Part shown: in pieces, positions 1 through 64,000 of the stretch
Numbering within the stretch: the stretch's first letter is position 1
How the letters are laid out: each line of letters opens with the position of its first letter
NCBI RefSeq assembly: GCF_964204645.1
Contig: NC_134030.1
Coordinates: 16,306,110-16,370,109 of the forward strand
Reading direction: 5' to 3'
DNA: 64,000 nucleotides
From: Tubulanus polymorphus
Lineage: Eukaryota > Animalia > Nemertea
The notes under the pieces: generated by a model
Seen by the model: the letters and a program-made list of their open reading frames with translations, nothing else
Told to the model about the DNA's origin: nothing
Database searches by the model: none
Program-made: the position numbers and the translations under genes

Positions 1-1022
1 CTCTCTATTATAACTGCCTATTGCAATTATACTAGTAGCATCTGTGCCACATTTTATATTCAGTTGAATGAGGAGTACCTCATTTGAATATTGATCGAAC
101 GTGCTCTTTCAGTTGAAAAGGATTGATCAATTTCATCACAAAAGAACATCTGTTGCAAAAGGTGGAATATAGACCGCATAGGACTTCTCACTAGAAACAC
201 AATTAGGAGTTTATAGTTATAAATGTAAGTACTGTTTTTGTTGTTATTAAGACGCCGGGAAACGTTAAACATGTTTCAGTGTATTAATCTATATTTGAAA
301 ACTACAACTTCAAGTTAGTTTTATTCTACGCTAGATATTTATCTTTTAGATAACAAAATGCTACGCGTAACAAGAAGACCATTGCTACTTGAACCAAGAA
401 AGTGAAGATAGGAGGATGTGGAATCAGAAATTATGGATATTTCAACTCATGAGACTGTAGCAGTTTAGCCATACTGTATAGACTTTCAATGCATTACGTT
501 TGCCGGAATTTCAATTGCGTCATTCAGCTGTTGTTAATGTTGCAGTGACAGATGTTGTATTATACTTTATTGATTTCTGCATTCCGCGCATACCTTACCG
601 CTCGGCTCCCGAGCGGCTTGGAATGTGGAAATCGATACTGACTGTATAAAATATATGTGTTTATATAATAGTAATTCCATCAGTCGTTTGTTTGAATTGA
701 TTTTCAGTATGAGGATTTATTATCGAGGATCCGAAATGACTTATCTGGACAATTAATTGCTCCTATAGATAGACTATAGTAGTGAGATAATCTAAAGCCT
801 AATTTAAATGAAATATATTAGAAATCACATACCTTCAACTAGCCATTATTTCTATTTTAATATTTTTCAAAATCTAATATTTCTTTTCAAAAAGAGAATA
901 CTTTATATTTTGATAAGATTCGAATAGAATTTCTTTAACTTAACTAAGCTAGTATTTAAAATTCATTAACTTAACTAGCTAGTATTAAAATATATTTTTC
1001 TTGCTTTTTCTCTCTATTATAA

Positions 1023-1619
1023 ATGTCAAAGAAATCTAATAAGAATAGTATTGATATTGAAAAAACCTTAGATGATTTTGGCATTAGTGATAATAAAGAT
1101 ACAGTTGTTTCTAATTGTATTCAAAATGATAATATTGATTATGAATACTATTTGATGTGTAAGCATCATCTTGAATTACTAATTGCTGGCGGGAAATCTA
1201 AAGAATTCTTGGGAAAAATTGTAACTTATCAAGAACTAGATGCTATGAAGCCAGATAAAGTAATAAAACATTTCAAAATATATGAAGAAGCTAGATTGGC
1301 CCGAATAAATGATTCTATTTCTGATGGTATTATAAAATGTTATTCTAAATTATGTAACCGGATAATACCAATTGAAGATGAAAATAAATTATATAGTGAT
1401 TTGAAAAATGACTATTTAGTTATGACAGAATTACAGAAATGGGTTGGATACGCTTCATTTCAATTAGGTGGAATAATGACATTAATTTCTGCTGGAGCTA
1501 TAACATTTTCTAACATTAAACCTTTAGTATGTAAAGATAATAAATCAGAAGATGGTGCCGTATGGCACCCACACTGTGATATTGAATCAGAACAAAAATT
1601 AACTAAAATAAATGAGTGA
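1023..1619 (+). CDS. Polinton-like element protein of unknown function with C-terminal hydrophobic segment (198 aa)
   Basis: Intact ORF with TAAATG start; hydrophobic stretch GYASFQLGGIMTLISAGAITF. Confidence 0.7.
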   Translation: MSKKSNKNSIDIEKTLDDFGISDNKDTVVSNCIQNDNIDYEYYLMCKHHLELLIAGGKSKEFLGKIVTYQELDAMKPDKVIKHFKIYEEARLARINDSISDGIIKCYSKLCNRIIPIEDENKLYSDLKNDYLVMTELQKWVGYASFQLGGIMTLISAGAITFSNIKPLVCKDNKSEDGAVWHPHCDIESEQKLTKINE

Positions 1620-1962
1620 TGATATTAAGAAAAAGGCTAGATCTGAGAAACAAATTAAATGGGCTAGGGAATTAGGTAAAAGATCTGCAGAATTAAAAAA
1701 AGCTAAGAAAAAGTAATTAACTGATATAAATGAATCACCTGATATTAATTCAAATAACAATCCATCTGATTCTTCTAATAGTGGAAGAAATAATTACTTA
1801 TATATTACAATTGGGTTAATCGCAGTTATTGTATACTCCGGTGTAATATATAAATCAAAATTTAATAACAATAATGATTCCGATGATAAACCTATTATAC
1901 CAGAAAATAAGTCAAATGATAAAATCATTGAAACTAAATCTGAATTATTATTAATGAATTAA
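1612..1962 (+). pseudogene. Small protein with basic N-terminus and one TM helix, one internal stop
   Basis: Reads MSDDIKKKARSEKQIKWARELGKRSAELKKAKKK*LTD...YLYITIGLIAVIVYSGVIY...LLMN*; TAAATG start overlapping the end of the previous ORF. Confidence 0.6.
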
Positions 1963-1973
1963 AATAAAATTAA

Positions 1974-3050
1974 ATGAAAAAAAGAACAATATTTAAGAGA
2001 TTTATATTATAACCCAGAGAGTGAAGTATCATATTCTAGTGTTACAGAATTATGGGATAAAATTAAATCTGATAAAGAAAATGTAAAATATAGTTAGTTA
2101 AAATTATGGTTACAAAATCAACCAACATATCAAATCCATAAGAAAATGGATAAAAATTATTTAACAAGAAAAGTTATGGTTTCACATATCGATCAACAAT
2201 GGCAAGCTGATTTAATTGACATGAAGAACTTAGAAGAATACAACAAAGGATATTTCTGGATATTAAATGTTATAGACATATTCAGTAGATACGCATGGTC
2301 AATTCCAATCAAAAATACAACTGGAATAGAAGTAACAAATGCTTTTAAGACTATATTTAAAGAAGCTATTCCAGGTAAGATACAATTCGATGAAGGTTAG
2401 GAATTCTATAACAAACATTTAAAAAAACTATTATCTGATAACGATGTAGAACATTTTTCAACACACTCAGATAAAAAAGCATCTATTATAGAAAGATTTA
2501 ATAAAACATTGAAAACTAGAATGTGGAAATATTTTACTGCAAATGAAACATATAAATATATCGATGTGTTAGATGATTTGGTGAAAGGTTATAATAATTC
2601 TAAACATAGTTCTATAAGTATGAAACCTATACAAGCTAGTAAAGAAGATAATTCAGAAATAGTTTGGAATAATTTATATGAAGCATTTGTTACACATGAT
2701 TTTGGAGAACCAAAATTTAAATAGGGCAACAAGTTAGAATATCTAAATATAGAAAAACCTTTTATAAAGGTTATACCCCTAATTTTACTGAAGAAATATT
2801 CAAGATTAAAAAGATAATATTAACTAAACCTTTTGTTTATAAATTAGAAGATTTAAAAGATGAAGAAATATTAGGTTATTTCTATGAACAAGAATTATCA
2901 CTTGTACCAAATCCAGATGAAATAGAATACAAAATAGAAAAAGTATTGAAAACAAAAACTCTTAAAGGAAAAAAGTATTCTTTGCTGAAATATAAAGGGT
3001 ATGATGATAAATTTAATGAATGGATTTTATCTAGTAAAAAGAATAAATGA
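1974..3050 (+). pseudogene. Polinton-type retroviral-like (rve) integrase with C-terminal chromodomain
   Basis: Motifs LYYNP, WQADLIDM, VIDIFSRYAW, IQFDEG*EF, ERFNKTLK, YNNSKHSSI and chromodomain YKIEKVLK...KYKGYDDKFNEW. Two in-frame stops and two frameshifts. Confidence 0.93.
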
Positions 3051-3639
3051 ATAAAGATTTATTTATATTTGAACTGGGGTAACCAACTGTGGTAAAACGC
3101 ATTTCATATTAGACTTGTTAGAAACTATTTATAAGAATCATTTTGATAATATAATATTATTCTGCCCCACTTATGAAATGAATAAAACATATAATAGGGA
3201 TAAAGTTATGATAAAAAAATTTATTATATTAGATCCTAAAACAGTAAAAGAAAATTTAGATAAATGTATTAAAATAGCAATTGATATTTATAAAGGTTCA
3301 AATACATTATTCATTATAGATGATTGTGCAAATTTACATGATTCAAAAGTGAGAGAAAGTGAGTTATGCTATCTAGCTTTCTCTGGGAGACATTTTGGGA
3401 TAACAACATGGGTTTTAAATCAAAAATATAATTCAATTGTTAAAGATTTTAGGGAGAATATAAGATTTTTAGTTTTATTTAATAACAAAGATAGAAAATC
3501 TATGCAACAATTATTGGAAGAAAATCAAATTATACCTACTGAATTACATGATGAATATATGAATAAATTAAAGAATAGTAAAGGTTCAAAATTACTTCTG
3601 AGACTACGATTTCCCTATGAATATAAATTTATAAATTAA
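3047..3639 (+). pseudogene. A32/FtsK-like genome packaging ATPase
   Basis: Walker A GVTNCGKT in frame just upstream of the 3115 ORF; Walker B LFIIDD; GRH and NQ motifs. Frameshift near the TAAATG start. Confidence 0.88.
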
Positions 3640-3661
3640 AATTTGAAATATTATAGAAACT

Positions 3662-3777
3662 ATTTATACATCTATGTACTAGACGTACGAGTAAGAATCC
3701 AAGATTCTTGCCAAGATAGTAAGAAAGTTAGAATTCTTGGATTCTTACTCGTACATCTAGTACATAGATATATAAAT
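3662..3777. repeat. Inverted repeat hairpin A (43-bp arms)
   Basis: 3662-3704 pairs with 3735-3777 at 41/43 positions. Confidence 0.9.
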
Positions 3778-3914
3778 TATTAAATGAAATATATAATAAT
3801 GAATAAATTATATATTAAAACTATGTTTATAATTTATGTTTATAATTTATGTTTACACAGGGGTACAAATATATATATATATATATATAATTTATATGTA
3901 GAATAATTATTCTG

Positions 3915-4006
3915 AAACTGTTTATATATCTATGTACTAGACGTAAGAGTAAGAATTCTTACCAAGATTCTTACGTACGTCTAGTATATAGGTATATAAA
4001 TAGTTT
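3915..4006. repeat. Inverted repeat hairpin B, paralogous to hairpin A
   Basis: Shares TCTATGTACTAGACGTA.GAGTAAGAAT with hairpin A; arms 3915-3956 and 3967-4006. Confidence 0.88.
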
Positions 4007-4014
4007 TATAATAA

Positions 4015-5207
4015 TCATTCTAATTTTGTTTCTAATACATTTATAAAATCATCTTTGTTTATATCTAATTCACCATAACTCTTAAGTAGATTTATTAATT
4101 CTATTCGAGTCATCTTTAAACGAAAATTAGTAGGTATATTAGCTTCTTTTCTTAATTTTTCAAAGTATTCATCAAAATCATCAAAATCAAAATGATATCC
4201 AAAATTTTTTATTAGATAACTTAAATCTATTTTTCTCGAATATAATAATTTACATATTTGTTCAGGATTATCTTCTGCATAAACTAATAATTTATCAAAT
4301 AACAGCTTATAGAATATATAATATTGTTTAGTTTTAGGGTTAAAATATTTGATATATTTCTTTGGGTTATTTAACAATGGTATCGTACTCGCCATTTTAT
4401 AAACATTAATTAGATGTAATTTTGATTTATAATGAGTATTTTCATCAACAGGTTCAATTTTCTTATTACAATATTGACACGTTTTATTTCTTTCTATTTC
4501 TTCTAATTTCTTTTCATGTTCTTCTAACACCCTTTCATTTTCTACTATATGCGCTTTAGATTTTTTATGTTTAGAAAAACTACTTTTAGAAATATCTAAA
4601 TTACAAATGTTACAATGTTTTTAGAATCATCAATTATTTCATTATCTGTTATATCATTATAATTACTTTCAATTGGGTTAACATTATTTATTACATTATC
4701 TGTTATATTATCTATGGTATCATTAGTTTCAATTGTATAAACATTATTTATTAAATTATCTATTATATTATTATCAGATATATAATTATCATTATTATTC
4801 TTTTCTTTTTCTACATGTTTCTTTGATTTCTTATGTGATGCCCAATTTTTATATGATATATATTTCTTACATAAGTCACAATATTTTTCATTCGTCATTT
4901 TGGTTTGATATCAGATTTAACTTTTATATCATTATTAGATGTAGAAGGTATAATATCTATATTTTCATTATTATAAGATGTAGAATCAATATTATCTTCT
5001 ATTTTAGATTCAATATTATCTTCTATTTTAGGTTCAATATTCTCTTCTATTTTTGTTTCAATATTATTATCTATTTTACTTATTCTATATTTGAATTGAT
5101 TAAAGTATTCTCCAAAATACTTCCTGTATTCATCATAAGGTATTATATAATATATATCTGGTATCATTTCAATTGGACTTTGTATTTCATATATTCCTCT
5201 CTTCCAT
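4015..5207 (-). pseudogene. Multi-C2H2 (U1/matrin-like) zinc-finger protein, frameshifted
   Basis: Three CxxC...HxKSKxH fingers (CDLC..HKKSKKH, CNIC..HKKSKAH, CQYC..HYKSKLH). The join at ~4620 needs a 1-nt shift in an A-run. Fusion with the upstream 4895-5207 frame is inferred. Confidence 0.65.
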
Positions 5208-5239
5208 TTATTATAAAAAGTTGTATTAAAATTAAAATT

Positions 5240-6374
5240 CTAATACATAACACTATTTAATTGAGAATTTACAATATTTAATTGCGCGTCAGATATAATA
5301 TAAATGTGTATTTTGAAATTTTTGATTCCTTTCTTCTTTTTCATGAATAATTGTATCCCATCTTTAGTATTCTGTAATTTTTTTCCAGAACCATGTAATG
5401 AATTATCCTCTGTTGTTCTAAAATCTAACCATAATGCATATTTATTACCGGTATAATAATCAATTTGATTAATATTACAATTTTCAGATGATTTTACTTT
5501 TTCATTCCTAAAATGTTTTCTAATTTCTGGCCATTGATCTATCATTGTCATTCCTTGACAAAATATTTTATTTGCTATACCTTCGATAGTTATTTATACT
5601 TTTGTTTTTTCAGGATTATAATAATTATCGACCTGTATTGCGCCATTAGAATATGTTGCAATGGTAAAAAATATCAATATACCTTTAATAGATCTTCTTG
5701 GGAAGTTAATATTCTCATTAATAATTTCATCACTTGCATTAATAGTTACAGTTTTAAATTTATCAATATAATCATATAATAATGAAAATCCTTGAGTTTG
5801 AATTATACTTGAAATATTTTCATCAGTTACTGTATTATATTCTAAACTTATATTCGATAACCCATATCTTTAACAACGCTAGATAATACAATTTCATTAA
5901 CAGGAGCAAATGTTATTTCGAATATAATATCTTCTTGAATTGCGTATTTATATAAAGGTGCATTATTATTTATCAATTCAAAATCTAATGGAATTTTATG
6001 TTTGCTTCCATAAATCTTTTTGATCAAATTATCTGCGGTACGAGTTGCTACTATTGCGTCAATAATATAATCATATCATCATATCATATAACTGTTTCTG
6101 GGCCAATCTTTATAGTTAATTTTTTAATCAAATATCTTCCAACATTATCAACAACATAATTATTATTATTACCAGTTACATTTATACCAGCTGATAAATA
6201 AAAACTATTTGGAACATAAAAAGTATTTTGTGTTAATCGAGGGATTCTAACATATAAAGTTTCATCAGGATTAATATTAGAAGGGTTATGAGTAATTATA
6301 TGATGAGATCTTTCTGCTTTGATAGCAGTAGATATTCTAGGATTCTTAGAAGGATTTATGTAACTCCCACTCAT
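5240..6374 (-). pseudogene. Probable double jelly-roll major capsid protein (disrupted, internally deleted)
   Basis: N-terminal HNPSNINPDETLYVRIP..FYLSAGINV..LIKKLTIKIG and C-terminal YALWLDFRT..LHGSG..HIYIISDAQLNI resemble beta-rich Polinton-like MCPs; context with ATPase and penton genes. Confidence 0.7.
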
Positions 6375-6394
6375 TTATTTAACAAAAAAATTAA

Positions 6395-8121
6395 TTATCT
6401 TTTTTTTATCATATTCACTAACCCAAAAATAATTGCACTTACCACTGTTATTAAAGATAAGATAATATGTTCAGCAGCAAAGTTAAAGATGTTTCCTGCA
6501 GATTTCAATATAAAACCAACAATCGATGCTATAACTCCAGGTAAAGCTGCAGCAGATTTTTTAGTTCCCATAAATATTTTGCTAATTTTTTTAAACCATC
6601 CTTAACTTTATCTTGTATAGAATTATTATCATTTGGGGGTTTATCTGGTTTATTCGGACTTGGTGTAGATTTCAATGAATTTGATATTGCTAAACCTATT
6701 GTTGTGAATACCATAGTTACAGCTGTTAGAATTGAAAGAATTGTTATACCTTCTAACTTAAATAATAATTTTATTCTATCTTTTAATGATATTTCAGAAT
6801 CTGGTTTTATTATTAAATCTTTAAAAATAACTTTTTTAATATGATTAAGATCATATGATTTTAATAATACATCTCTCTCTTTTTCCTGTAATTCTTTGTT
6901 ATATTTTAAATCATCTATTTCTTTTTCTAAAGCTAACTTTCTGCTTTCATAATCAGCTTCCTCGATTACTTGAAGATTTTTATTTAATTCTAATTGTTTT
7001 AATTCTTCATTTGCATTAGTTAATTCTTTTTCTAACATGGTTATTTTAGAAAATCTCATCTTAATATTAGCAATTTCACCAGCTGATTCTTGCATACCTT
7101 TAATTTCTCTACGTGCTTGTTCAGGAAATGTTTCTAATTCTTCATCAGTTAAATCAAGTAATACTTTTTCTAGTAAAGATTGTATTCGATTTATTCCAGT
7201 TTCAGTACCAGATGTATCTAACATACTATTCATCTCTTCGTCCAATGAATGAACTGTATCACTTAATCTATCAATTTGTTTTTCTAATACTTACTGTAAT
7301 TGACTTGAATAATTATCAATTTGTTGAATATCTCTTCTCGATGTTTCTGGTGTTGAAGATCTTAATTTATCTAATCGATCTGCAAAATCTTCATCATTTT
7401 CTGGGTCAACAAAAGTTGGTTTTTGATTTGGATTTTTAAATGGTGAATAATTGTTAATATCAATATTCGGAATTGGTTCTTTTTCATTTATTCTATCGAG
7501 TGCATACCATATAATTCTGAGTAATTCTCTACCGCCTTTTGAACCTTCAATTGTAGATCTTGCTCACATTTCAGGATGGTACACATCTTTTTGCCCCATT
7601 TTAGATAATTGAATTGATACAGTTTTGTTATTTAATTCAACATTATAAAACCATGTATCATTTTTAAATTTTAAATTATTCATGAATTGTGGATCATCTT
7701 TTCTAATTTGTTCTGAAATATCTTCTGGTTCAATGTTATATGTTATATTTTTTGGTAATAATTCTTCAATAACTGTATTTGTTACACTATGTTTTATGTA
7801 TAATAATTCATTTTCCAATTTAGGGTTTTTTGTTTTTTCTAATCTATCAATTAACTCTTTTCTTTCTGGTCTAGTTTTAATTATTATCTTATCGCGGGTT
7901 CTTAAATAATCTATTAATTTTTCACTTGTTTTAGTATCATCTTTAAATTCATCATAATCATATAATATAGGCCCACTAGAATCATCTTCATCATTATTTA
8001 AATTAGAATTAAATGCTGATCCATCATCATTATCAATATTATTTTCATTAAAATCAGGTTGTGGTTCATCACTTATACCAGGGGCGTCACCAAAAGTATC
8101 CATTGGAATATCTTCTTCCAT
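6395..8121 (-). pseudogene. Large acidic/coiled-coil protein with C-terminal hydrophobic and amphipathic helices (~575 aa reconstructed)
   Basis: ORFs 7564-8121 and 6529-7245 are in the same frame, joined across two stops. A frameshift near 6565 gives KSAAALPGVIASIVGFILKSAGNIFNFAAEHIILSLITVVSAIIFGLV. Confidence 0.7.
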
Positions 8122-8136
8122 TTATCTAATAAAAAA

Positions 8137-9490
8137 TTAAAATTTAAAATATAATATTCCTCCTATTACAATTCCTATACAAGTTATAGCTAATTTAGCA
8201 TTTTCATGGGATTTATTATCATTGTCAGTTTTAATTATGTCATGTTGAATATTATCAGTTTTTATATCACTGTGTGGGTGCCGTACGGCACCATTTTCTG
8301 TAGTATTGTAATCTTTTATTTTAGAATCATTATTTATTTTTGATATTCTCAGTTTTAGTATCTGTTGATTGAATATGTTTTTTAATTTTTATACCTTCCA
8401 TTAATTTTGGAGCAGTTATAATCTTTTTATTTATATCATTCAATCCAAATGAATTATTTATTGTTGCAGTCTTGATTAAATTATTATAACCAATTATATT
8501 TCCCATTTTTAATATTAAATCATCAGAAATAATTGATAGATTAGGGCCTATACAATAATTTAATCTAATGTGTGATTTATCTAAATAATTTTGATATCTT
8601 ACAATGATTTCTGGAATCGATCTATTTTTATCATTATGAATGGAATCTTCAAATAAAACTTGAAATTGTTTTTGTGTATCAAATGAAGTATTACCATTTC
8701 CAACTATTGGTGATCTTGTTTCAACTTGGGCACCTAGAATACATATCAAATAAGTTCTAATAGATTGATTTATTCCTTGTATTCCAGCTTTAGTAAAACC
8801 TTGACTATTTTCTAAAATAAAATTAATCCAACCATTATTGTTTTGTTGTTGTATATTATTAAAATATTTTGGTAATTCATTCCAATTAAGTGTTCTTATA
8901 TCTGTATTTGTTATTATTTTACCAAATTCTTTAGTATATAATATTCCTAATCCACCCATTGTACCAATTTTTGCTCTAAAATCATTATTTGAATTAATAT
9001 TAAATTCATTACATATTTTATGAAACTTAGAAAAATTAATATTATCATTTAGTTCATTAAAATATTTTGAACCTGGTAAAGGACATTCTAATTCATTCAA
9101 TATTAATTTTATTTGAAAATAAGTATGAAATCTAAAAAGTGATAAAATCAATGGTAAGCTTGGTTCGTTTAAATGATCATTCCAACTTATACCACAGCCT
9201 GTTGTTGCGCAATAAACAGCAAAATTTAATTGGTTATGCCAATACTTGATATTAGATTTTAATAACCATTGTTTTGCCTCATTTAAATTTTTAAAATTAA
9301 TTACGTAAACATTGAATATATTTTCCATCTTTACATTAAAATTATTACTTTCAGTAACATAGATATCTAAATTAATTAATGAATTTAAAACTTCATTTCT
9401 ATATGAAATATCTTTATTAAAATCAATTGCAGGAATATTATATTTAATTGATTTATTATATTGAAAAGCTTTTGGAAAACTATCTACCAT
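8137..9490 (-). pseudogene. Polinton-like element protein with C-terminal TM anchor (one frameshift near 8335)
   Basis: 386-aa ORF (WHNQLNFAVYCATTGCG) continues in another frame to AKLAITCIGIVIGGILYFKF*. Confidence 0.7.
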
Positions 9491-9506
9491 TTATATAATT
9501 AAAAAA

Positions 9507-9931
9507 TTAATAATTTGTTAATTGTTTTAATAATTTATCTTGTTCTTCAACTGTTATATTACCATTTAAACTTATTATATAATCTAGTGTATTTTTTAAT
9601 TTATTAATTTCTTTTATATTAGTTTTAATTTTTTCTTTATTACTTTTTATATTTAATTTTGAACTTATACCAGTTAAAACACTTGATAACCCTAACACAC
9701 CAATTGATATAGCTAAAGGTATTAATGGACTGAATATTGCTAGAAATGTTATTACAGAACTAATTGTAACTGAACCACTGATAATAAAATAATATAAAAT
9801 TCTACTTTTTAAATATTTTTTATCTTTAAGTCACTTTCAAATTCTAATATTTGTTTTACTAAATATGTTTTTAATTTAGTTTTATTTATATCATGAGGAA
9901 TAATATCAATATTATCAACTTTATCATCCAT
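9507..9931 (-). pseudogene. Two-TM-helix protein with coiled-coil tail, frameshifted
   Basis: MDDKVDNID start at TAAATG; ILYYFIISGSVTISSVITFLAIFSPLIPLAISIGVLGLSSVLTGI hydrophobic hairpin. Confidence 0.6.
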
Positions 9932-10345
9932 TTATTTAGCAAAAAAAATTATAACAATAACTGTTCCACCTAAAATCCAAATTATTTCATATTTCTGTTG
10001 TTCTTTACTTGGGGTATAATAATCTGATGATTTAGGTTTGTATAGACGTAATTTTTCTTTATTTGTTACTGCGTTATACAAACTCATTGCATCATCGACT
10101 GATTGAAAATCTCTATGTGAAATCTTCTGATCATATAATTCTTTATTGATGTAATCCATATAGTTTTGTCTTTTTTCTCTATATTCTTCTGCAGCTTTGT
10201 TATATTTTTCTAATGCTAAGCTATGTCTTTTTTGTTCTGATAATGAACCATTTTTATCAATATGCTTAAATAAATAACCACCACCTGTAAATGCTAAAGC
10301 GTTAACAATTGCCGATCCTATAATAGTTATAATTGCAGAAGCCAT
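9932..10345 (-). CDS. Membrane protein with N- and C-terminal hydrophobic segments (137 aa)
   Basis: Intact ORF: MASAIITIIGSAIVNALAFTGGGYLF ... IIWILGGTVIVIIFFAK. Confidence 0.75.
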   Translation of the reverse strand: MASAIITIIGSAIVNALAFTGGGYLFKHIDKNGSLSEQKRHSLALEKYNKAAEEYREKRQNYMDYINKELYDQKISHRDFQSVDDAMSLYNAVTNKEKLRLYKPKSSDYYTPSKEQQKYEIIWILGGTVIVIIFFAK

Positions 10346-10361
10346 TTATTTAGTAAAATAA

Positions 10362-10592
10362 TTATACATTTATATAGGAGGAATATATTTTTGTTTTTTC
10401 CAAATAATCAATAGTTAAATTAGATAAAGTAACTGCTAATGTTAATTTTAAAATATCATTTATATCAAATCTATCAACATTAACACTTCCCATTTTAAAT
10501 ACTTTTTTTAATACAATTGAATAACCAACAGTTCCAACTGATAATAATGCTCCATTATATAATCCAGTTATTATCCACTTATTACCACTCAT
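10362..10592 (-). CDS. Small hydrophobic protein (76 aa)
   Basis: Intact ORF with TAAATG start and two hydrophobic segments. Confidence 0.65.
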   Translation of the reverse strand: MSGNKWIITGLYNGALLSVGTVGYSIVLKKVFKMGSVNVDRFDINDILKLTLAVTLSNLTIDYLEKTKIYSSYINV

Positions 10593-10949
10593 TTATTTAT
10601 CAAAAAAATTACTATCTTCAAAATATTTATTTATCTTAGTTATGATTATTTCAACATTTATAGTATTATTAGTTTCATTTTCATATATTTCAGTTATTAT
10701 TCTTTTAATATCATCAATGATAAAATCTTCATCTAATTCATAAAATCTTAAAGATTCTCTGATTAAATTAGTAATCTTTTTTACATTTAAAGTTTCTTTA
10801 TCTATTGTTTTTTCATACTCAAATGTTGTTTCATTAGAAAATGCAATATTTTTAATATGTGTAATTACATCAGTAATGTTAAATTTCATTTCTTTCTCAT
10901 GTTTAAAATCGAATCCAAAACATATACTCGGCCCAACAGTTATATTCAT
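10593..10949 (-). CDS. Hypothetical protein (118 aa)
   Basis: Intact ORF with T-run + TAAATG start; its stop abuts the next ATG. Confidence 0.6.
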   Translation of the reverse strand: MNITVGPSICFGFDFKHEKEMKFNITDVITHIKNIAFSNETTFEYEKTIDKETLNVKKITNLIRESLRFYELDEDFIIDDIKRIITEIYENETNNTINVEIIITKINKYFEDSNFFDK

Positions 10950-10965
10950 TTATATAGTGAAAAAA

Positions 10966-11698
10966 TTATTCTCTACATCTTATAACTAATTCATATATCA
11001 CAGGAAAATTATTTAAATCAATTAAATATCCATTATGATTTCTAATTTCTAATCTGAAATTATTAAAATGAGGAATGCATGGTTTGAAATCACATTCTGT
11101 TAAATTATAATTTATTTGAGTTCCAAATTGTTTAACATTTCTTAGCGGTAAAATATTTAGTATACTAGAACTACAAATTGTTTCTTTAGTTGCTTCGAAG
11201 GTTTTTGTAGGATCGATTAAATTGCAATGAATATAAAAGTGTGTAAAAGGTATTATATTTGAGATGCCTTCTGCGTTTCCGGTAACTGTAAGCGGTTTAA
11301 TTCCTAACATTTTAGCCATTGGTTTGTTTACCATAAATTTATGTTGTTCATTAGATATCTTTATTCTTATTTTATTAGTACTATCAATTTTATTAAATTT
11401 AATTTCAAATACAGAAGTGCCCCCGATTTTCAACCGAGCTCTTCTATTAATTTCCTGCGCTAATGATTCTAAATTATATAATTCTAAATTATATATTTCT
11501 CATATAAATCATAAACCCTCTATGTTCAAAAGTTTTATCCGATATATCATAAAAAGAATTACATAAACTTACATTTACTAATTTTAAATCAACACAATTC
11601 TTAAATTCTCTATCTAATTGTACTAGTAAATTATGTCATTTATAATTTGTAAGTCTTCTTGAATCAACAAATATTCTATATTCTTTTAATTCTACCAT
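10966..11698 (-). pseudogene. Probable single jelly-roll minor capsid (penton) protein
   Basis: N-terminus IFVDSR..VQLDREFKN..LKL..NSFYDI and C-terminus HFYIHCNLI..SILNILPL..FRLEIRNHNGYLIDLNNFPVIYELVI resemble Polinton penton motifs. Stop and frameshift in the 5' third. Confidence 0.72.
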
Positions 11699-11712
11699 TT
11701 ATTTTACATATT

Positions 11713-12066
11713 TTATTCAAAATCTATTTCATGGTGCCCTTTTTCATTCTTACCTTTATATATGAAATAGAAATCACCTGAACATAATTCTTCTAAATCT
11801 TCACTTGATAATCTATGAAATCTATCTGGTAAATATGTTCTGAATTTATATGTACTTCCTTTTAATCCTTCACATTCTAAGTGGATAACTAATTTATCTC
11901 CATATTTGTTAGTAACTGTATCAATATTTGTAATTAGATATTTATTATGAATTGTTAATTCTGTTAACTTTTTGAATTTATAATCTACAGATTTTACATT
12001 TGTGATATCTTTAATTCTATCTAGAAATGATTTGTTGTTCTCAGTGTGTACTTGTTTACTCTCCAT
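11713..12066 (-). CDS. Putative OB-fold ssDNA-binding-like protein (117 aa)
   Basis: Intact ORF; pattern KKLTEL..KYLI....TNKYGDKLVIHL...YLPDRF...FIYKG suggests a small beta-barrel. Fold assignment is inference. Confidence 0.5.
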   Translation of the reverse strand: MESKQVHTENNKSFLDRIKDITNVKSVDYKFKKLTELTIHNKYLITNIDTVTNKYGDKLVIHLECEGLKGSTYKFRTYLPDRFHRLSSEDLEELCSGDFYFIYKGKNEKGHHEIDFE

Positions 12067-12127
12067 TTTAATATCAAATTTTTTATTAAAACTGATTTTA
12101 GAATTCTAGATTAATATTTTAAGAGTT

Positions 12128-12265
12128 ATAGGGAATATGTTGTTCTAGATTAAAGGTTGAGAGGTTGAGTGAGTAGAAAAATAAATTCGAGTGTGCGAGA
12201 ATTTATTTTTCATTTTTTACTCACTCGACCTTTCGACCTTTGATCTAGAACAACATATTCCCTAT
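12128..12265. repeat. Long inverted repeat near the right end of the Polinton-like element
   Basis: 48-bp outer stem (12128-12175/12218-12265, 4 mismatches) plus a perfect 13-bp inner stem. Confidence 0.9.
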
Positions 12266-15200
12266 TACTAGCATGATTATGAATGACAAGTTTTATAAAA
12301 GTACTAAGTAAGATATGTGATTATGAAATAATCGATTATCATATGAAAATTAAGAATTAGAAACTAAAATATGATTATGAATTAATTATAATAACGGTTT
12401 CGTATTTTAGTGATTAAGATAAGCAATAATAATACGTATTATTCTAGGTACAAATATGAATATTTACATAACACAAGCGTTTAGATTGGTTATATAGATA
12501 TACGCTTTAATCAATTACACGTAGTTAAGTTTTAGTTAATTGAAAGCTAATATAAAGTTTGAGTTTAGAATTTAAGATCTAATATAAATCGTATAATAGG
12601 CCTAAAGACTCTAAAAATATAACAGAATCTGAATATGGCTTACCTGAAATTCGATTGACGACAAACCAATTATGAATTTGATGTCTGTATTTGACGAGAG
12701 CATGAGTAGTCCGAATGACCAAGCCAGGCCTGAGCTGGACATCTTTGACTCAAGCTCCACCGCAAACAAGTTCGGGGTCAGGGCACATATCATTGGTCAT
12801 CATATCATTAGCCATCAGACTCAAAAATCTGACAGGAGACCTAAGTAAATAACACTAAACAAACTGTGAGCCTCGGGTTAATCATTAATTGACTCCGAAG
12901 TTAAGTTTGGCTAATTCTAAGATTTTAGAGACGAATGGCATGCAAACATCCTGTCACTCGTAACAAAGGGTTGCCTACCATATTGCATAAAGATGATAAT
13001 AGAAAGTGAATAAAACTATATTTGGAGAAAAAAAAATGAATATGACATATGTAATCTTTCTTTTTAATCTTTTCTTTCTTTTAAAATTTTGTAGTGTATT
13101 TCCATATCCATTATGACACTGTTTCGATAAAGATGAATTTTGAAAAAGCAGCGCACCATTCTGCACCCTTCTGCGTAAAGACTTTCGTCCGCGAAAGTTT
13201 ATCAAAAATCACAAGTGAAAATTATACAGTGTACGAAATACATAAAACAATAAAACACTGCAAGACTCCGAAAAAGAACGAAGCAGAGACCAGGCAGTAT
13301 ATACGTACACGAAATAAATCGCTGCAGACAGCCGAATGACAAAAAAGAGAATCTTAATAATACATTACACAATTTGATAAGTGCTATATATTGCACGAGA
13401 AAAACAACCGTAAAGGTGACTGTCATAATTGGAATGTCCATGATATCAGTTGCGTTGGATCCACGATTCAGTTATACAATTTCATGTTCTGTCTCATTGC
13501 TTGAGGTAGAAGCAATGCTTGAGTTGACCCACATTTTTTTATGAATTTTAAACGTCGAGGTGTCGTGGGCAGTACAATAGCTCTATCCTGGTGGTAAAAA
13601 GTAAAGCCTGCCTAAAAAGTCACTGGAGAATAAAGAATTCGTCTGATCGAGCGATCTTATGAATTGGAATAAGAAATTTGCTAAGGTATCGACGAGGATT
13701 TGTCGTTCAGAGTGGTAATCACATAAAATTCGTCCAGTCCGTCACTAGATAGGGACGCAGTCAACCTGCAACCAAAATGTCACCAAACTGGGGTAAGACA
13801 ACATTCACCACAATGGACTGCTGCGATGACAGTCCTGAAACTTTGGCAAATTCGATGGTTTTGGTTGTGGATATTCAAAACTGTGGAGCCAATACTCTTC
13901 GCCTTGGCTAATGTCTCCACTTTCACTCAGCACAAATCCACAACTAATAGGCTGCTCGAAGACCCCAAATCCCATTGTCACATAAAGAGCAGGAACCAGA
14001 ACATCAGTTGGTAACTTGGGAAAGATAAGACAAAAAATCGGGATCAGGAAGCGAAAAAATGGATGATCAGACCAAATAGCAGTGAGCCACAGAAACCGAA
14101 AGTCAATCTCATCAGAATGGCAACCGAAAGAAACAGGTATGAGTTCATAGCGTTATGATGAGGGGTAAGAGCGCTGTCTAACAGAAACCTAAAATAGCGA
14201 TATCTTTCATATTTTCTTCGACCTTTTTGGGCACAAAACTTGCAGGAAACTTGCAGGAAATATCTTTTACCTGTGATTTCAGCTATCACAAGTTAGAACG
14301 AAATAGAAAGACTTGCCGGTACAACACGACGTTTCGGTGCGATAATGAATTAAATTTAGCCTAACATTAGGCTAACTAGCTTTTCTGGTTGTTTGAAACT
14401 GTCATTATGTTGATGAATCATCCTAACGATGATTTAGGCGAGTTCTTTGCGCTGATTTTGGTTCTATGGCATTCTATGGCATTGCATTTAGGTTCTTAGA
14501 ACTTCACGGGGTGTTGTTAAAACCCTTGATTCACTTTACATTTGGGATACAAAATCCATTAATTACGATAACAGTTCACTTACCAACATATTTCTGATAC
14601 CGTGCGATGATTTTAATGATTGAAAATTGGACCAGGTGACAATCAAAATTGCATTGTCACCATGTCCGTAGGCCTACGGTATTTAAATCGTTTAATTCGG
14701 ATCGGTTATGTAAACTCCGGATTTTCACATATTTCGGACTAAAATTCATGTCCCTTGACTAGGTAATTATTTATGTTCAAATGAGAACACGATATTCACA
14801 TCTCGTTCAATTGCGAGATTTCGGCCGATCCTCAGCTCGCTGGTGAATTTTCGATCAACCTTAGAGCAAGCCTACACATATAACTGTTGTATTAATAAAT
14901 CAATACATTTTATCTAAATTATTCAGTTGTTGTTTATTTAGGCCTATATATTTTTGCTATATTTTTTAGTCCTTATGAATCCGTAAATCAACATTATGAG
15001 TTTTCCGGTTTGCTCGGCTACCCGTACTGGCGGGGTAGTCTAGATAGGCAAATGAAAGCTCCGGTTTGCTGAACTACCCCTCTTTGCGGGGATGCGGTAT
15101 GATGTTTGATCTGACAGTTTCAAGTGGTTAATGGGTGTTTCAAGTGCTTACAACGATGCTTATTACTTAATGTGGTACATGGTGGTTTAAAAAAAGATTT

Positions 15201-18866: not shown

Positions 18867-20625
18867 ATGTCTGTCGACGGAAAGAGTAAGCCACACGGCG
18901 ATGATTTAGAAACATTGAAACGATCCAGAGCTGGATATAAAGCCGCGCTCACTAAGAAAAGAAATGAGTTAAGGGATATGTTAAAGAAGAATCTCTCCAG
19001 CTGATGAAGTGAACGCTGCTTTGTTAAGAATTGATGAAGCCTGGAAAAAATTCGAAAATGCCCACCAAGTCGTGCATGACTCACTGTTAGATGATGAAGA
19101 AATCGAAGCGTCATTTGTTTGTTTCGATACGAAAGAAAATCTCACATGTAATTTGCGTTTAAAAACAAATCAATATCTAATGGTCAAAGCACCTAGTTTT
19201 ACGCCGAAAGCACAGGCATCGCAGCCGTCTAGCCCGGACAATTCATTAAGCAGAAATCCACAGAGTTCCGGTACTGATCCTGGACTGCAGTTGATGATAG
19301 AAAATATGGTTCGTATGTCGCTGCCCAAACCAGAAATGCCTATTTTCTCTGGCGATGTCACGGAGTACTGTTACTTTATCCGCGCTTTCGAAAATCTGAT
19401 AGAAGCGAAAACTGTAAACAATAGCGAGCGATTGTATTTCCTTACCCAATATACAAAGGGAGATGCACACGAGTTAGTAAAAAGCTGTTTACCCAAAGAT
19501 CCAGCCGTGGGTTATCCAGAAGCCAGGCAACTTTTGCTGACACGTTATGGTGATAGTTATCGAATCGCAACTACGTTAGTTGATCGCGTAATCAACGGCC
19601 CGCTTATCAAATCGGAAGATGGAGAGTCATTGTTGAAATTTTCTGTAGCCTTGACAAGTTGTAAAAATACGTTGGAACAAATTGGATACTTGAGCAAAAT
19701 AGAGAATCCAGATAATCTGAGAAAGCTAATTGGTCGTTTACCATTTGAAATTAGAAAAAAATGGCGCGTAAAGGCAGACTATATTACGCAGTTCGAATTT
19801 CGAGAAATAACTCTCGCTGATATAAGCAAATTCGTAGAAAATGAAGCACGAATCATTAATCATCCAGTTTTCGGCAATATCACTGATGGTCAAAAAAGGT
19901 CGCAGCAAAATAAATTCGCAAAATCGTTTTACAGCAGATCGAGTGATGTCAAGCGCGAGGACAATACATTTTCACCACAGGGATTAGGCCACAAATCTTG
20001 TAGTATATGTCAGGCCGAACATGCGTTGACCGATTGTGCAGTCTTCAAAGCCAAATCGTATGAAGAGCGACGCAATTTCGTCAGAGACAAAGGTTTGTGC
20101 TTTAACTGTTTAATCCCTCGTCATCGAGCCAGGAATTGTTGGACGGCAACACAGTGCGCAATCTGCCGTGACGGAAAGCATTCAACATTGTTATATATTA
20201 ATAAATTCGACAATGGTGGTGACCGCGGTAGTAGCTCATCGGACAATACAAAGTCACAAGTGCATAATGCCTTTATAAGAGAATCGGAGAAATTGGTTGG
20301 TCTTCCTATTGTTCCGGTGAAATTGAGATCTAATGAGAATGACGTCGTTCTTACTTATGCGCTTTTGGATACGGGTTCGAATTCGACGTTTTGTACTGAA
20401 GATTTGATGTATCGTCTTGGCGTTGGAACCAGAAAAACTCGACTTTCTTTGACGACTATGGAACGAGAAAAAATTCCGATTGATTGTCATGTATTAAGCT
20501 TTGAAGTTTACGATTTGAACGAGACGTATATGATAGAGCTAACGAATGTGTACTCTCGCCCATACCTACCTGTATCGAAAGATGATATTCCTCGTCAAGA
20601 AGATGTTGAGGATGGCGACACATGA
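18867..20625 (+). pseudogene. BEL/Pao gag (DUF1759-like, CCHC knuckles) and aspartic protease
   Basis: FSGD..Y..F..AF, LYFL.QYTKG, CSIC..H..C, CFNCL..H..C, CAIC..H and ALLDTGS. Frameshift near 19000 after the ATG at 18867. Confidence 0.92.
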
Positions 20626-20718
20626 ATGGTATTGTACTACCCCAGATTGACGCGGAAATTGGCCTTTTAATCGGGAATGACAACAGCGTAGCATTGGAAC
20701 CATCTGAAATAAGAAGAA

Positions 20719-23700
20719 GTGAATGTGGTGGTCCGTATGCTGTCAAGACTTTATTCGGTTGGGCAATTGGGTAGAAGTAATATTGCAAGGCGAACGGTTA
20801 CTAACGTTATAAAAGGCGATGAAGTATTGTCTCAGCAGTTTCTTACCTACTGTAACGCGGAATTCAATGATTGTGTATACGATGATAAGACCGAGATGTC
20901 TCAAGAAGATAAAAGGGCTCTCGCCATCATGGAATCTACGGTTCAGCTGACAAAGGATGGTCATTACGAGATGGCTTTGCCTTGGCGCCATAATCCACCG
21001 TCTTTACCCAATAATCGGCCTGTAGCTACTCATAGGCTGAATCTGCTGAAGAGAAAGTTGGAGAAAGATGACAGTTTGTTTAGTGAATACGTCGGGTTTA
21101 TTCAAAAGATGATTCAGTCTAGTTTCTGCGAGAAGATTCCTGTAGGAGAACTTGACCGTCAAGATGGTATGGTCTGGTATTTGCCACATCATGCAGTTTA
21201 CCATCCACAAAAGAAGAAAATTCGAGTTGTGTTCGACTGCTCTGCTAGGTACCATGGAACTTCGCTAAATGATCAGTTGCTACAAGGTCCTGATTTGACC
21301 AATCGATTAGTTGGTGTACTTCTGCGGTTCAGACAAGACGCAGTAGCATTTATGGGAGACATTGAGGGAATGTTTCATCAGGTTCGAGTAACACCCGAGA
21401 TGAAAGATGCATTGCGCTTCCTGTGGTGGTCTGACTGCGATCTATCCAAGGAGCCAGAGGAATATCGAATGCAGGTGCATCTCTTTGGAGCATCTTCCTC
21501 ACCAAGTTGCAGTAACTTTGCGTTAAGGCGTTCTGCTTTCGATAACGAAGATAAATACGATAAGACAACCGTAAATACTGTACTACAGAACTTTTACGTA
21601 GATGATTGTCTCAAGTCGGTATGCACTGAGGACGATGCTATTCGGTTGCTGAATCAACTGATAGAATTACTTCATCGTAGTGGCTTTCGTTTAACTCAGA
21701 TTTCCTCCAACTCTCGACGAGTAATTGAGTCGGTGCCCGAGTCTGAGCGTGCTAATACGTTAAAGGATATGGATTTTGGTCAACAATCGCAACTTCCTAC
21801 AGAGCGAGCTCTCGGGATGCTCTGGCATATGGAAACCGATAAGTTCCTCTTTAAGGTTAAGATAAAGGATAAACCACTTACCCGTCGTGGAGTGCTCTCT
21901 GTAGCAAGTTCGTTAAACGACCCGATAGGATTTACCGCTCCAGTGACCTTGCCTGTAAAATCACTTATGCAAGAATTATGTAAGATGAAACTTGGCAGGG
22001 ATGATGAGATACCAGCGATTTATGAGGAGAAATGGCGTTCATGGTTGGCCGAACTTCCGAAATTAGAGAATATACGTATAGGTCGATGTTTCAAGCCTAC
22101 GAACTTCGGAGACGTCTGCTCTGCTCAGCTGCATCATTTCAGTGACGCTTCTGAATGTGGCTATGGAGCTGTGAGCTATTTACTGTTGGTAAATGAAGCT
22201 GGTGAAATTCATTGTAGTTTCATCATGGCTAAATCACGGGTTACACCTTTGAAGATTATAACCATCCCTAGACTGGAGTTAGCTGCAGCAACAGTCGCCG
22301 CGAGGCTCGACCGTTTAATTCGCAATGAGATTGGTATCAAGGTGGAACCGTCGTACTTCTGGACTGATAGCACATCCGTATTAAAATATATCAGGAATGA
22401 GAATCTACGCTTTCAGGTCAATGTTGCAAACCGGATTGCTGTTATCAGAGACCTGACTACCCCTGATCAATGGTTCTTAGTTAATGGTGCTGATAATCCA
22501 GCAGACGATGCATCACGCGGGTTTAAGGTTCAACAGTTGCTGGATGGAAACTCAAGATGGTTGACGGGGCCGGCATTTCTATCGTCTTTGGAGTCGGAGT
22601 GGCCGAATCAACCCGATGTGGAGGCTATACCCACAACTGATGTCGAAGTGAATAAGAAACAAAAATATATCTGTACACTGGTAGTGACTGAGGCGGAGGA
22701 CCCATGTATGATGTACTTCCAGCGATTTTCGTCATGGACACGGTTGAAGCGATGTATCGCTTGGATTCTACGCTTCAAAGTAAATTTGGCAGGACGGTTG
22801 AATGGTGTCAAAGTTGCTGATCCTATAACGGTACGTGAATTGAGGCAAGCCGAGAAAGCCGTGCTTTCATATGTACAACAGCTGTATTATTCAGAGGAGT
22901 TGGCTGGTGGAAAGATCAAGAAATCTAGTTCGATCATAAAGCTTGATCCGATTATGATTGATGGGTTGCTGTGCGTAGGAGGACGATTAAGGCGATCTTC
23001 GTATTCCGATCGAGTCAAGCATCCTATTATCCTGCCAAAATCTGCGCATATTTTAGATCTGATTATCCAAGAGTATCACGAGATGTATGGTCATTCTGGT
23101 CGTGATCATATTCTGTCGGTAATTCGTGCTAAATTCTGGATCGTCAACGGGAAATCTGCAATATGGAAGGTTTTGAATCACTGTTACGATTGTAGACGTA
23201 GGCATGGTAAATACTTAGAAAACAAGATGGCTGATTTACCCGAAGAAAGGGTAACTCCTTGTGAATCCCCATTTACATACGTGGGTGTGGACTTCTTTGG
23301 TCCGTTTCTCGTAAAGCAGCTTCGTTCGCAAGTTAAACGCTACGGATGCATATTCACTTGTTTGTCAATTCGAGCTGTACACATAGAAATATGCCGTTCG
23401 CTTGATACAACATCATTTATTAATGGCTTACGCAGATTCATGGCAAGACGAGGTACACCTACAGGTATTTGGAGTGACAACGGTACCAACTTCGTCGGAG
23501 GAAATAGGGAATTGCGTGAGGCTATACAAGATTGGAACCATGATAACATTCACGATTTTCTGTTACAGAAGGAAATTGAGTGGCATTTCAATCCGCCTGC
23601 TGCTTCCCATATGGGCGGTGTGTGGGAGCGTCAAATTCGTACAGTCCGTAACGTTCTTGCTGCTTTAATGAAAGTTCAAGTACTAGATGATGAGGGCTTA

Positions 23701-24168
23701 TCCACTTTAATGTGTGAGGTGGAAGCTGTTATTAACAGTCGGCCTATAACTGCTGTTTCAGATGATCCGTTAGATTTAGAAGCTCTTACGCCCAATCACT
23801 TGTTGTTACTGAGAGCTGGCTCAACTTTACCCCCCGGTATATTTCAAGCACGTGATCTTACATCAGGAAACGTTGGCGCCAGGTTCAGTACATGGCTGAT
23901 GTATTTTGGCGGCGATGGACTCGGGAATATTTGCCATCGTTGCAGCAGCGTCAGAAATGGTTTCATACGCAACGAAACTTCTGTAGGTGATCTTGTTATA
24001 GTATCAAATGAGCAACTGCCCCGCGCCCAATGGCCTTTGGGTCGTGTCATTGAAGTGCATCCAGGTTCAGATGGTGTTGTGCGAAGTGCTAAAATAAAAA
24101 CCCGCTCTTCTCCATCACTTATACGTCCAGTTAATAAGTGCGTTATGCTGGAACGAGCAGTGGAATAA
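20719..24168 (+). pseudogene. BEL/Pao pol (RT, RNase H, integrase)
   Basis: WYLPHH, RVVFDCSA, GDIEGMFHQV, FYVDD, HHFSDAS, IPRLEL, GVDFFGP, SDNGTNF, GGVWER, WPLGRV. Compensating frameshifts around 23865-23980. Confidence 0.95.
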
Positions 24169-57847: not shown

Positions 57848-58070
57848 TTGCAGTATTGACAATGACTGTAATTTCTGTCCCGATGATAACGTTATCAGAT
57901 CCTTATTCGACGCAAAAGACTCTAGCGGTGTCCATATCGGGTTAGAGGGCGCGAGGGTTCTTACTAATTCGTTTATAACGGCCCTCGGTCTACATTTGAT
58001 CACGGACTGATGCAAAAAAAGAAACCTCAGTCAGACTCATTAAATCATTCATCAAAAAGAGATCGTCTAC

Positions 58071-63000: not shown

Positions 63001-64000
63001 ATCTCAGAGATTTTCTTCAACTCGCTTTCGAACATGGAACGGAATGCGACGATGCGGTTGCGCTACAGGTTTAACTGACGCATCTACATGCACGCGCACA
63101 GGCTCTCCTACGCAGGCGCCCATTCCCGATAAAACATTTGGGAATCGCTTTACGACATCCGGTATATTTGAATCAGACTGGTTTTCCGTACTCGTCATTT
63201 TTGGTTTCTCTGGATCGGATTGCGCATTATCGCTCACAGAATTTGCCACTTTGATGAGACAAAGTTTTTGCGAAGTCTCCCGGCTAAGTAACGAGCTACT
63301 GGGGCCAGACACAACGTATACGGTCTCCCTACAAGATGCGCGATTGTTGCATAATTCAGCTTCGAATTTACCAAGCAGGTCCAACGGTTTTTCCGACTTA
63401 TACGGAAAAATGCGAGATTTCGATTGAATCAGTGTAGGTCTCGGATACAAGTTGAGGTAGACATTGTGGTTGAGAACATTAACGGTTGCATCAGAATCTG
63501 CCATAACGCGGGTCTTGGTAACACTCACTGATATATCGAAGAACGGTTTAGAGCGAGTCATATCAGCAGTATAATGATTTGCACGAAATACATACTCATC
63601 ATCGCTGCTTTGATGAGCTAAGGTTGCGGTGATTGCAGCCTCCTCAGTAGGTGAGGAACCAACGACATGAGTCTGTTTTCGGTTCCTATTGTTAGGTTGT
63701 CTACGTGAGTTGTAGTCTCGATTTCGACTAGGGTCACGGTTACGGTTTCGCTCTGACTGGTTCGGCTTTCCACGACACATTCTAGCAAAATGGTTACGCT
63801 TGTCCCTTCGCAGGACATAGTGTCCGGTGAGGATATACACCACCACACAATCCACAGATTCTTGTATCTGACCAGTTCCGATTCGGTTGACTTGGTCTAT
63901 TCAACATCGCACGTTTCCATGGTAGATTCACTCTCGACTTATTCATTGGTGCTGACAGTGCATGTGACGTATGTTGTTCCATCTCTATGTCCGCTCATCA
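60037..64000 (-). mobile_element. Ty3/Gypsy LTR retrotransposon (5' part outside the window)
   Basis: 170-bp 3' LTR at 60037-60206 (TGTAATG...CATTTCA on the minus strand, with AATAAA), preceded by the PPT AGGGGGGA. Confidence 0.93.
60394..64000 (-). pseudogene. Gypsy gag-pol (zinc knuckle, protease, RT, RNase H, integrase), frameshifted
   Basis: HFARMCR knuckle, ADSDATVN, KLDLKQGYHQI, RLNFG, ISDDI, YPQIDREALA, HEGHLGI, DDYSRYP, SDNG, LRRSTR. Confidence 0.93.

Follow-up and report, generated by a model that had tools for sequence, protein, structure and literature searches.

The DNA analysed here, called the window, is a stretch of 64,000 nucleotides from the nemertean Tubulanus polymorphus (contig NC_134030.1, positions 16,306,110 to 16,370,109 of the forward strand). 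Its first part, positions 1..12269, is a decayed copy of a multi-copy endogenous Polinton-like virus (PLV). The genes of this element start almost without exception at the motif TAAATG, and a block of genes that includes the capsid gene fits the late promoters of vaccinia virus. Judged from the sequence, the element was probably a satellite of a co-infecting poxvirus-like virus, whose RNA polymerase transcribed it.

The extent of the element was determined from read depth and base composition. The depth in run X5 was ~260-900 over most of 1-12279 compared to ~8-20 past 12610, and over the capsid region it was ~720-820 compared to 8-11 at 13077-14000 (genomic run, same species label). The GC content was 20-26% over 1001-12000, and the element as a whole is ~76% AT. 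The high depth stops at ~12279, at a 146-nt hairpin, and persists leftward to base 1; the left end, along with any replication genes, is therefore located beyond the window. The element is thus larger than the extent of 1010..11715 given in the initial annotation, with its right end near 12269 and its left end before base 1. From the reads, the copy number would be some tens up to roughly a hundred, with most copies 90-95% alike; this is a rough estimate that draws on 12% of a single run from another sample. Stops or frameshifts break at least eight genes of the window copy. The following features were located, where a slash marks the start of the coding sequence.

1..12269 (no strand): endogenous Polinton-like virus, decayed; right end near 12269, left end beyond the window, by read depth and GC
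1023..1619 (+): conserved gene, function unassigned; family in 23 loci; no Pfam match and weak Atlas matches only; TAA/ATG, no late-spaced T-run
1612..1962 (+): small predicted membrane protein, one internal stop; TAA/ATG, A-rich upstream; N-terminus by eye similar to L002:9951
1974..3050 (+): broken integrase of the rve type, carrying a chromodomain; Pfam rve E 3e-5, Chromo E 6e-4; TAA/ATG
3047..3639 (+): A32-like packaging ATPase, broken near its start; Pfam Pox_A32 E 3e-10; TAA/ATG
3622..4045 (no strand): two related hairpin-forming units between convergent gene blocks; inverted repeats I2 and I4-I6, direct repeat D11; low read depth
4015..5207 (-): zinc-finger-like, repeat-bearing gene, broken; TAA/ATG, T5, 4-nt spacer; low read depth
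5240..6374 (-): double-jelly-roll major capsid protein, interrupted at several points; its pieces share 68% and 76% identity with protein P0121
6375..6390 (-): capsid gene, late-promoter-like core; T7, 6-nt spacer, TAA/ATG
6395..8121 (-): conserved gene, broken; product acidic/coiled-coil and hydrophobic at the C-terminus; T6, 6-nt spacer, TAA/ATG
8137..9490 (-): conserved ~440-aa family protein, broken near its end; 127 homologues; T6, 7-nt spacer, TAA/ATG
9507..9931 (-): predicted two-helix membrane protein, broken; T8, 6-nt spacer, TAA/ATG inside the end of the upstream gene
9932..10345 (-): conserved 137-aa gene; TTATTTT, 6-nt spacer, TAA/ATG, 16-nt gap
10362..10592 (-): conserved 76-aa hydrophobic gene; T7, 6-nt spacer, TAA/ATG inside the end of the upstream gene
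10593..10949 (-): 118-aa gene; T6, 7-nt spacer, TAA/ATG, 16-nt gap
10966..11698 (-): candidate minor capsid (penton) gene, broken; family in 49 loci; no Pfam match; TAA/ATG, A-rich upstream
11713..12066 (-): 117-aa gene; TAAA/ATG; partial DNA match to L002:349-485
12124..12269 (no strand): long terminal hairpin at the right end of the element; 62-nt arms, 87% complementary; -53.9 kcal/mol, z -17.6; read depth ends at ~12279

TAA stood directly before the ATG at each of the 13 starts that the initial annotation had listed, namely 1023, 1612, 1974 and 3047 on the plus strand and 5207, 6374, 8121, 9490, 9931, 10345, 10592, 10949 and 11698 on the minus strand. The claimed proportion of 13 in 14 was therefore confirmed. 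The fourteenth start had been left unnamed; we chose 12066 (-) for the count, and it is the exception (TAAA/ATG). Within the element, TAA preceded 15 of 188 ATGs on the plus strand and 22 of 236 on the minus strand, that is 8-9% with the true starts included, while the rate in the rest of the window was ~3%. The background was thus low, as had been proposed, but the proposed figure of ~6% was below the count in the element. The binomial p for 13 of 14 was 3e-13 at a background of 9% and 5e-14 at the local upstream TAA rate. The TAAATG start feature is real and strong.

The full late-type architecture was present at seven of the 13 starts (10949, 10592, 10345, 9931, 9490, 8121, and 6374), which belong to consecutive minus-strand genes. 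In all seven, the T-run ended at -10 or -11, the spacer was 6-7 nt long, and a T stood at -13. Five of these had been reported before and hold as written; the starts at 9931 (T8) and 10592 (T7), with the T-run and a 6-nt spacer lying within Phe codons of the upstream gene, bring the number to seven. Since they carry this architecture, these two starts with an abutting stop need no separate explanation. The T content at -16..-10 was higher at the 13 starts than at the 24 non-start TAAATG sites of the element (Mann-Whitney p=0.002). The pattern T5-N5-8-TAAATG occurred at six places in the element, every one of them a gene start, and at two places in the other 51.7 kb. The three intergenic gaps of exactly 16 nt noted earlier were found at 9490, 10345, and 10949, each consisting of the motif and nothing else, and the gaps at 8121 and 6374 were 15 and 20 nt. 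The starts at 1974, 3047, and 5207 have a frameshift downstream in the window copy; the first two match by eye the N-termini of their orthologues in the related loci L011 and L002.

The motif was then compared across 83 related loci, comprising the best 80 of at least 408 confirmed matches to the 386-aa protein encoded at 8333-9490, plus three found via the capsid. In these loci, a start was defined as the first ATG of an open reading frame (ORF) that matched any of 11 family profiles at its N-terminus; loci lacking an ORF of this kind dropped out. TAA/ATG was counted over distinct upstream sequences. AT-rich members of the same family served as the composition control. TAA/ATG was present at 16 of 18 homology-defined starts in clade A (L001-L004, GC 0.20-0.23) and at 53 of 55 starts in clade B (15 loci, GC 0.31-0.39). 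It was found at 0 of 36 starts in 11 other AT-rich loci (GC <0.41) and at 4 of 131 in the remaining, GC-rich loci. L036 (1/1, on a long branch) was left out of all groups, and L038 was placed in the last group for counting, as a fragment had been picked there; its real start has TAA, and the locus falls in clade B. In L002, 14 of the 16 ORFs of at least 90 codons start at TAA/ATG.

The upstream T-run was conserved as well. A T peak at -15..-12 was found in both clades; in clade A, T occupied these positions in 83-89% of starts and -13 in 89%, and in clade B it occupied -14 in 91% and -13 in 64%. Moreover, 18 of 19 head-to-head gene pairs of clade B had TAA/ATG on both genes, which lay 14-37 nt apart or overlapped by 16-43 nt. 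The TAA closed an upstream open frame of at least 50 codons at only 1 of 16 starts in clade A and 4 of 54 in clade B. The match to poxvirus late-promoter architecture is supported and withstood the refuting conditions set in the initial annotation: it is conserved in related copies, absent in AT-rich relatives, and present at divergent starts. Scans of a viral contig collection yielded no relative, whether the query was the 386-aa protein, its alignment, an alignment of the capsid, or an integrase, and a phage collection likewise gave none. A large group of capsid homologues (P0127-P0165) is ~51-58% identical to the clade A capsid; one of them is labelled in its source as a Bartonella protein and is probably host DNA.

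A quick tree built from 71 rows of the 386-aa protein joined the window copy and clade A in one group (SH-aLRT 100), with L005 and L006 as the closest relatives (98), while clade B was a separate group (SH-aLRT 100). Constraining A and B together on a 23-row subset was rejected (approximately unbiased test, p-AU 2e-5). On these trees, the pattern would reflect either two gains of the motif or an ancestral motif that was replaced several times. Other start signals were found elsewhere in the family. L005 carries a T-run with TAAAA/ATG at 3 of 3 starts. Most genes of L006 have TTTTC(T), ~8 nt, and then TATAGA, with TATA at 8 of 10 starts compared to 0.8 in shuffled sequence. This resembles the late promoters of African swine fever virus (ASFV), described with TATTT at -15..-11 and TATATA at the start (PMC5294985). 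L006 also encodes a Bcl-2 family gene (7433-7909, minus strand; Pfam E 3e-18), and a match to Pox_VLTF3 in the same locus (E 7e-4) was below the cut-off and treated as noise. In groups E and G (e.g., L041, L057, L066, L031, and L051), TTGAA was located within 40 nt upstream of 56 of 85 and 17 of 48 starts, compared to 6.7 and 2.7 expected, respectively. The TTGAA of these groups recalls AAAATTGA, an early promoter found in large DNA viruses. Over its history, the family seems to have exchanged one promoter type for another more than once, which would be expected if lineages had moved to other helper viruses.

Several explanations that involve no viral polymerase were weighed. An origin by chance, from high AT content or a biased choice of start codons, gains some ground from the ~76% AT of the element, but its probability is negligible given p ~1e-13, 53 of 55 starts at GC 0.31-0.39, 0 of 36 in AT-rich relatives, and locus starts that were picked mechanically as the first ATG of homology-defined ORFs. 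It is also very improbable that TAAATG is a translation signal, that is, stop-start coupling or an initiation context on polycistronic RNA. Among starts with a same-strand upstream ORF within 120 nt, a 0- or 3-nt gap from the upstream stop was indeed seen at 4 of 14 in clade A, where a further start shows a 1-nt overlap, and at 6 of 15 in clade B, and a purine follows the ATG in 16 of 16 and 47 of 54 starts, respectively. However, head-to-head starts, which have no upstream gene, carry the motif in 18 of the 19 pairs, which excludes coupling as a general cause. A translation signal also leaves the fixed-distance T-run unexplained, and the T at -3 runs counter to the usual initiation context of animals. 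Since the motif is missing from AT-rich relatives and occurs at divergent starts, base composition and stop-start coupling both fail to account for it. The lack of AG rules out a splice or trans-splice acceptor, and AATAAA as the meaning of the motif was rejected because clade B mostly has TTAA/ATG. AATAAA occurred 32 times in the ORFs of the element against 32.1 expected (4.5 per kb), and its observed-to-expected ratio was 1.4 in groups E and G, which lack TAAATG. As it is avoided in neither set, this poly(A)-signal test does not discriminate.

Two further explanations accept a promoter. The element could be nuclear and autonomous, with host RNA polymerase II and a host or element-encoded factor starting near-leaderless transcripts at a lineage-specific motif. 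Integration into nuclear DNA in many copies is in line with this, as are the part of the element beyond the window and several unannotated genes. We consider it rather unlikely, since the motif keeps one invariable position relative to the ATG, from which a TATA box would direct transcription to begin within the ORF, and no match to TBP or TFIIB was found in the window, L002, or 38 other locus ORFs scanned with Pfam. Alternatively, the promoter would be helper-dependent and the helper a different cytoplasmic large DNA virus, e.g., of another Pokkesviricetes lineage, with a poxvirus-like late promoter. The late promoters of poxviruses and ASFV are both bipartite, with a T-rich core and an initiator (PMC5294985), clade A often has TATAA/ATG (TATA within -14..-1 at 14 of 18 starts), and the close relatives L005 and L006 show TAAAA/ATG and TATAGA variants. 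On the other hand, TATA is not enriched in clade B (6 of 55 compared to 8 shuffled), and among the virus families covered in the review PMC5294985, as far as its available text goes, TAAAT(G) overlapping the ATG is described only for poxviruses. A helper of this other kind is unlikely.

A satellite using a pox-like polymerase is the reading that we favor. In vaccinia late promoters, TAAATG lies at the start codon, and 10 nt upstream of TAAAT, that is at -13, a conserved T stands among other Ts (PMC11980589); the spacer is 5-7 bp (PMC5294985). The seven genes of the capsid block fit this pattern to the base, and this fit suggests a satellite that uses a pox-like polymerase in the cytoplasm. The core of the poxviral polymerase recognizes the TAAA initiator directly (PMC12917281). 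With an initiator of this kind, which also overlaps the start codon, the element would not have to supply a transcription factor itself. Integrated copies would stay silent until a helper infects the cell, and the excised genome of the element would then reach the cytoplasmic factory. The seven T-run genes would be expressed as late genes. The A-rich TAAATG starts of the integrase, the ATPase, and the penton-like gene may belong to intermediate-type genes, as vaccinia intermediate promoters have TAAA with an A-richer upstream region (PMC11980589). Transcripts would start in the AAA next to the ATG. On balance, the start motif probably has the role that a promoter plays in a helper-dependent virophage, here with a poxvirus-type helper, which would be a poxvirus-like virus so far unseen in this host.

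Several points weigh against this interpretation. The late-spaced T-run is missing at six of the 13 TAA starts (1023, 1612, 1974, 3047, 5207, and 11698), and the motif is short and AT-rich, so that it could be read by another machine. No poxvirus polymerase subunit, transcription factor, or helper gene was found above Pfam cut-offs in the ORFs scanned, the element being incomplete. With the left end beyond the window and several conserved genes lacking an assigned function, the element may encode a transcription factor. Coral polintoviruses were reported to be expressed in heat-stress and control transcriptomes (PMC11131425). Furthermore, the counts and the first tree were already known when clades A and B were named, the trees are quick one-protein trees with compositional bias flagged for clade A, and the starts in related loci are not independent. 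Transcription by a co-infecting pox-like polymerase, as originally proposed, is supported as a reasonable interpretation by the promoter match and its conservation; the helper dependence that it included is what we infer from them, and the suggestion that the element is possibly protective was unsupported here.

The capsid assignment of the gene at 5240-6374 follows from its orthology to P0121, whose model (predicted local distance difference test, pLDDT, 89) is a double-jelly-roll that matches the capsids of iridovirus, the chlorella virus PBCV-1, and mavirus, with E down to 3e-16. The protein had no match to any Pfam capsid family. The 386-aa protein, whose family is present in nearly all loci, gave a model with pLDDT 86 but no BFVD match at E<=0.001 and no Atlas match. 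Orthologues of the 9931 gene showed weak SLATT_fungal matches below the cut-off, and the gene at 10966..11698 is one that we take, by its resemblance, to be a candidate for the penton or minor capsid. DNA polymerase B of the protein-primed type (pPolB) and a cysteine protease were not found in the window or in the 11.5-kb L002, both of which lack one end, and neither had a protease or mu-core Pfam match. A six-frame Pfam scan of window 1-842, covering the high-copy region 1-840, gave no match; window 726-817 matches an intergenic part of L002 (2451-2539, 80%). L002 carries a deoxynucleoside kinase gene at 10340-10981 (-) (Pfam dNK E 2e-31) with a T-run/TAAATG start, inside a clade A element, and a search with this kinase gave no named viral relative. 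In L051, an ORF of at least 1074 aa (9970-13191, minus strand) contains a superfamily 1 (SF1)-type helicase region (AAA_30, AAA_19) adjoining the integrase and is a possible replication module of the family.

The copies also vary in structure. The read depth at 3622..4045 is low, so the hairpin units there are not common to most copies. Together with the zinc-finger-like gene at 4015-5137, where depth is likewise much below that of the core genes, they appear to form a variable cassette in the family. About 660 reads cease aligning at 12062, just inside the 12066 gene, which points to many copies in which this start region is followed by different sequence. Two unrelated genes share, at their 3' ends, a 53-nt inverted repeat with 81% complementarity (1539-1591 and 8255-8307), and no left-right terminal repeat was found within the window. 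The host flank contains a BEL/Pao retrotransposon at 18985-24168, of a type not known outside animals and so in keeping with an animal host, and remnants that by eye are LINE-like (long interspersed nuclear element; 58044-59800) and Gypsy-like (61043-63900).

The helper dependence of animal Polintons and PLVs is an open question with almost no experimental system. A signature this exact allows a cheap and direct test in a poxvirus transcription system, and it tells which kind of virus to seek in the host. If the interpretation is true, the integrated-virophage strategy would extend from protists to animals, with a poxvirus-type helper, and endogenous elements would come to indicate large DNA viruses that are still undiscovered. 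A broader proposal is that this widespread animal-integrated PLV family consists of satellites of large cytoplasmic DNA viruses whose promoters were rewired repeatedly, to pox-type in two lineages, asfarvirus-type in another, and TTGAA-type in others; we offer it tentatively, at somewhat less than an even chance. In that case, each endogenous lineage would preserve in its start motif a legible trace of large viruses still to be discovered in these hosts, poxvirus-like viruses of non-insect invertebrates among them. PLVs as poxvirus hyperparasites are already published for insects, from other lineages and without promoter analysis in the published text available (PMC11296320). No paper on poxvirus-type promoters of PLVs was found in the literature searched, which lacked most subscription journals.

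The insect case concerns PLVs from entomopoxvirus occlusion bodies, which were proposed as poxvirus hyperparasites (Barth et al. 2024, PMC11296320). Like the element described here, these viruses (AHEV_PLV1, AHEV_PLV2, CBEV_PLV1, and Ca_PLV1) are small and have a double-jelly-roll capsid and an A32 ATPase, and one entomopoxvirus-associated PLV is integrated in a beetle genome. They carry genes of their own, namely an adenovirus-type protease, a mu-core-like protein and, in three of them, a phospholipase. They have PolB or a primase-helicase together with a tyrosine recombinase and no rve integrase, as described in the same paper. In contrast, the element has an rve-chromo integrase and, in the part seen, none of their distinguishing genes. 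It falls, by its sequence, outside the described entomopoxvirus PLV lineages. Those PLVs are tied to poxviruses by physical co-occurrence, whereas this element is tied to them by promoter sequence only. The available text of PMC11296320 contains 0 occurrences of "promoter," "motif," or "TAAAT" and does not discuss promoters.

The double-jelly-roll major capsid protein and the A32-like ATPase are features of Polinton-like viruses (Polisuviricotina), and the rve integrase is a feature of Maverick/Polinton group 1. Mavericks/Polintons of groups 1 and 2 (Polintoviricetes; 10.64898/2026.06.19.733378) share with the element an animal host, an rve integrase, an ATPase, and a double-jelly-roll capsid, and the helicase of L051 adjoins the integrase as described for Maverick group 2 in that source. 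Unlike these groups, the element has no protease or pPolB in the part seen. The classifications in 10.64898/2026.06.19.733378 and 10.64898/2026.10.13.758929, as available, did not place the family in a named group.

Among virophages, a parallel in promoter use is found in Cafeteria, where the endogenous types carry different promoter motifs and induction was limited to the type sharing the helper's motif (PMC10945749; promoter-matched helper specificity also in 10.1101/2025.10.09.676808). Mavirus and the endogenous mavirus-like elements (EMALEs) resemble the present element in that they are rve-integrated, occur in many copies, and comprise types that differ in promoter motif, and their motif predicts the helper virus (PMC10945749). 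They are protist virophages with a known Imitervirales helper, Cafeteria roenbergensis virus (CroV), and with demonstrated induction and protection (PMC10945749), whereas the present element belongs to an animal host and is known from its sequence. The capsid of the element is only 10% identical to the mavirus major capsid protein in a structural alignment. A transpoviron that has ASFV-like late promoters was also described (PMC11788076). Compared with the vaccinia late promoter itself, the putative promoter described here stands on an element in which no RNA polymerase gene was seen, and it has the same initiator, ATG register, spacer, and T position at seven of the 13 window starts and at most starts of clades A and B.

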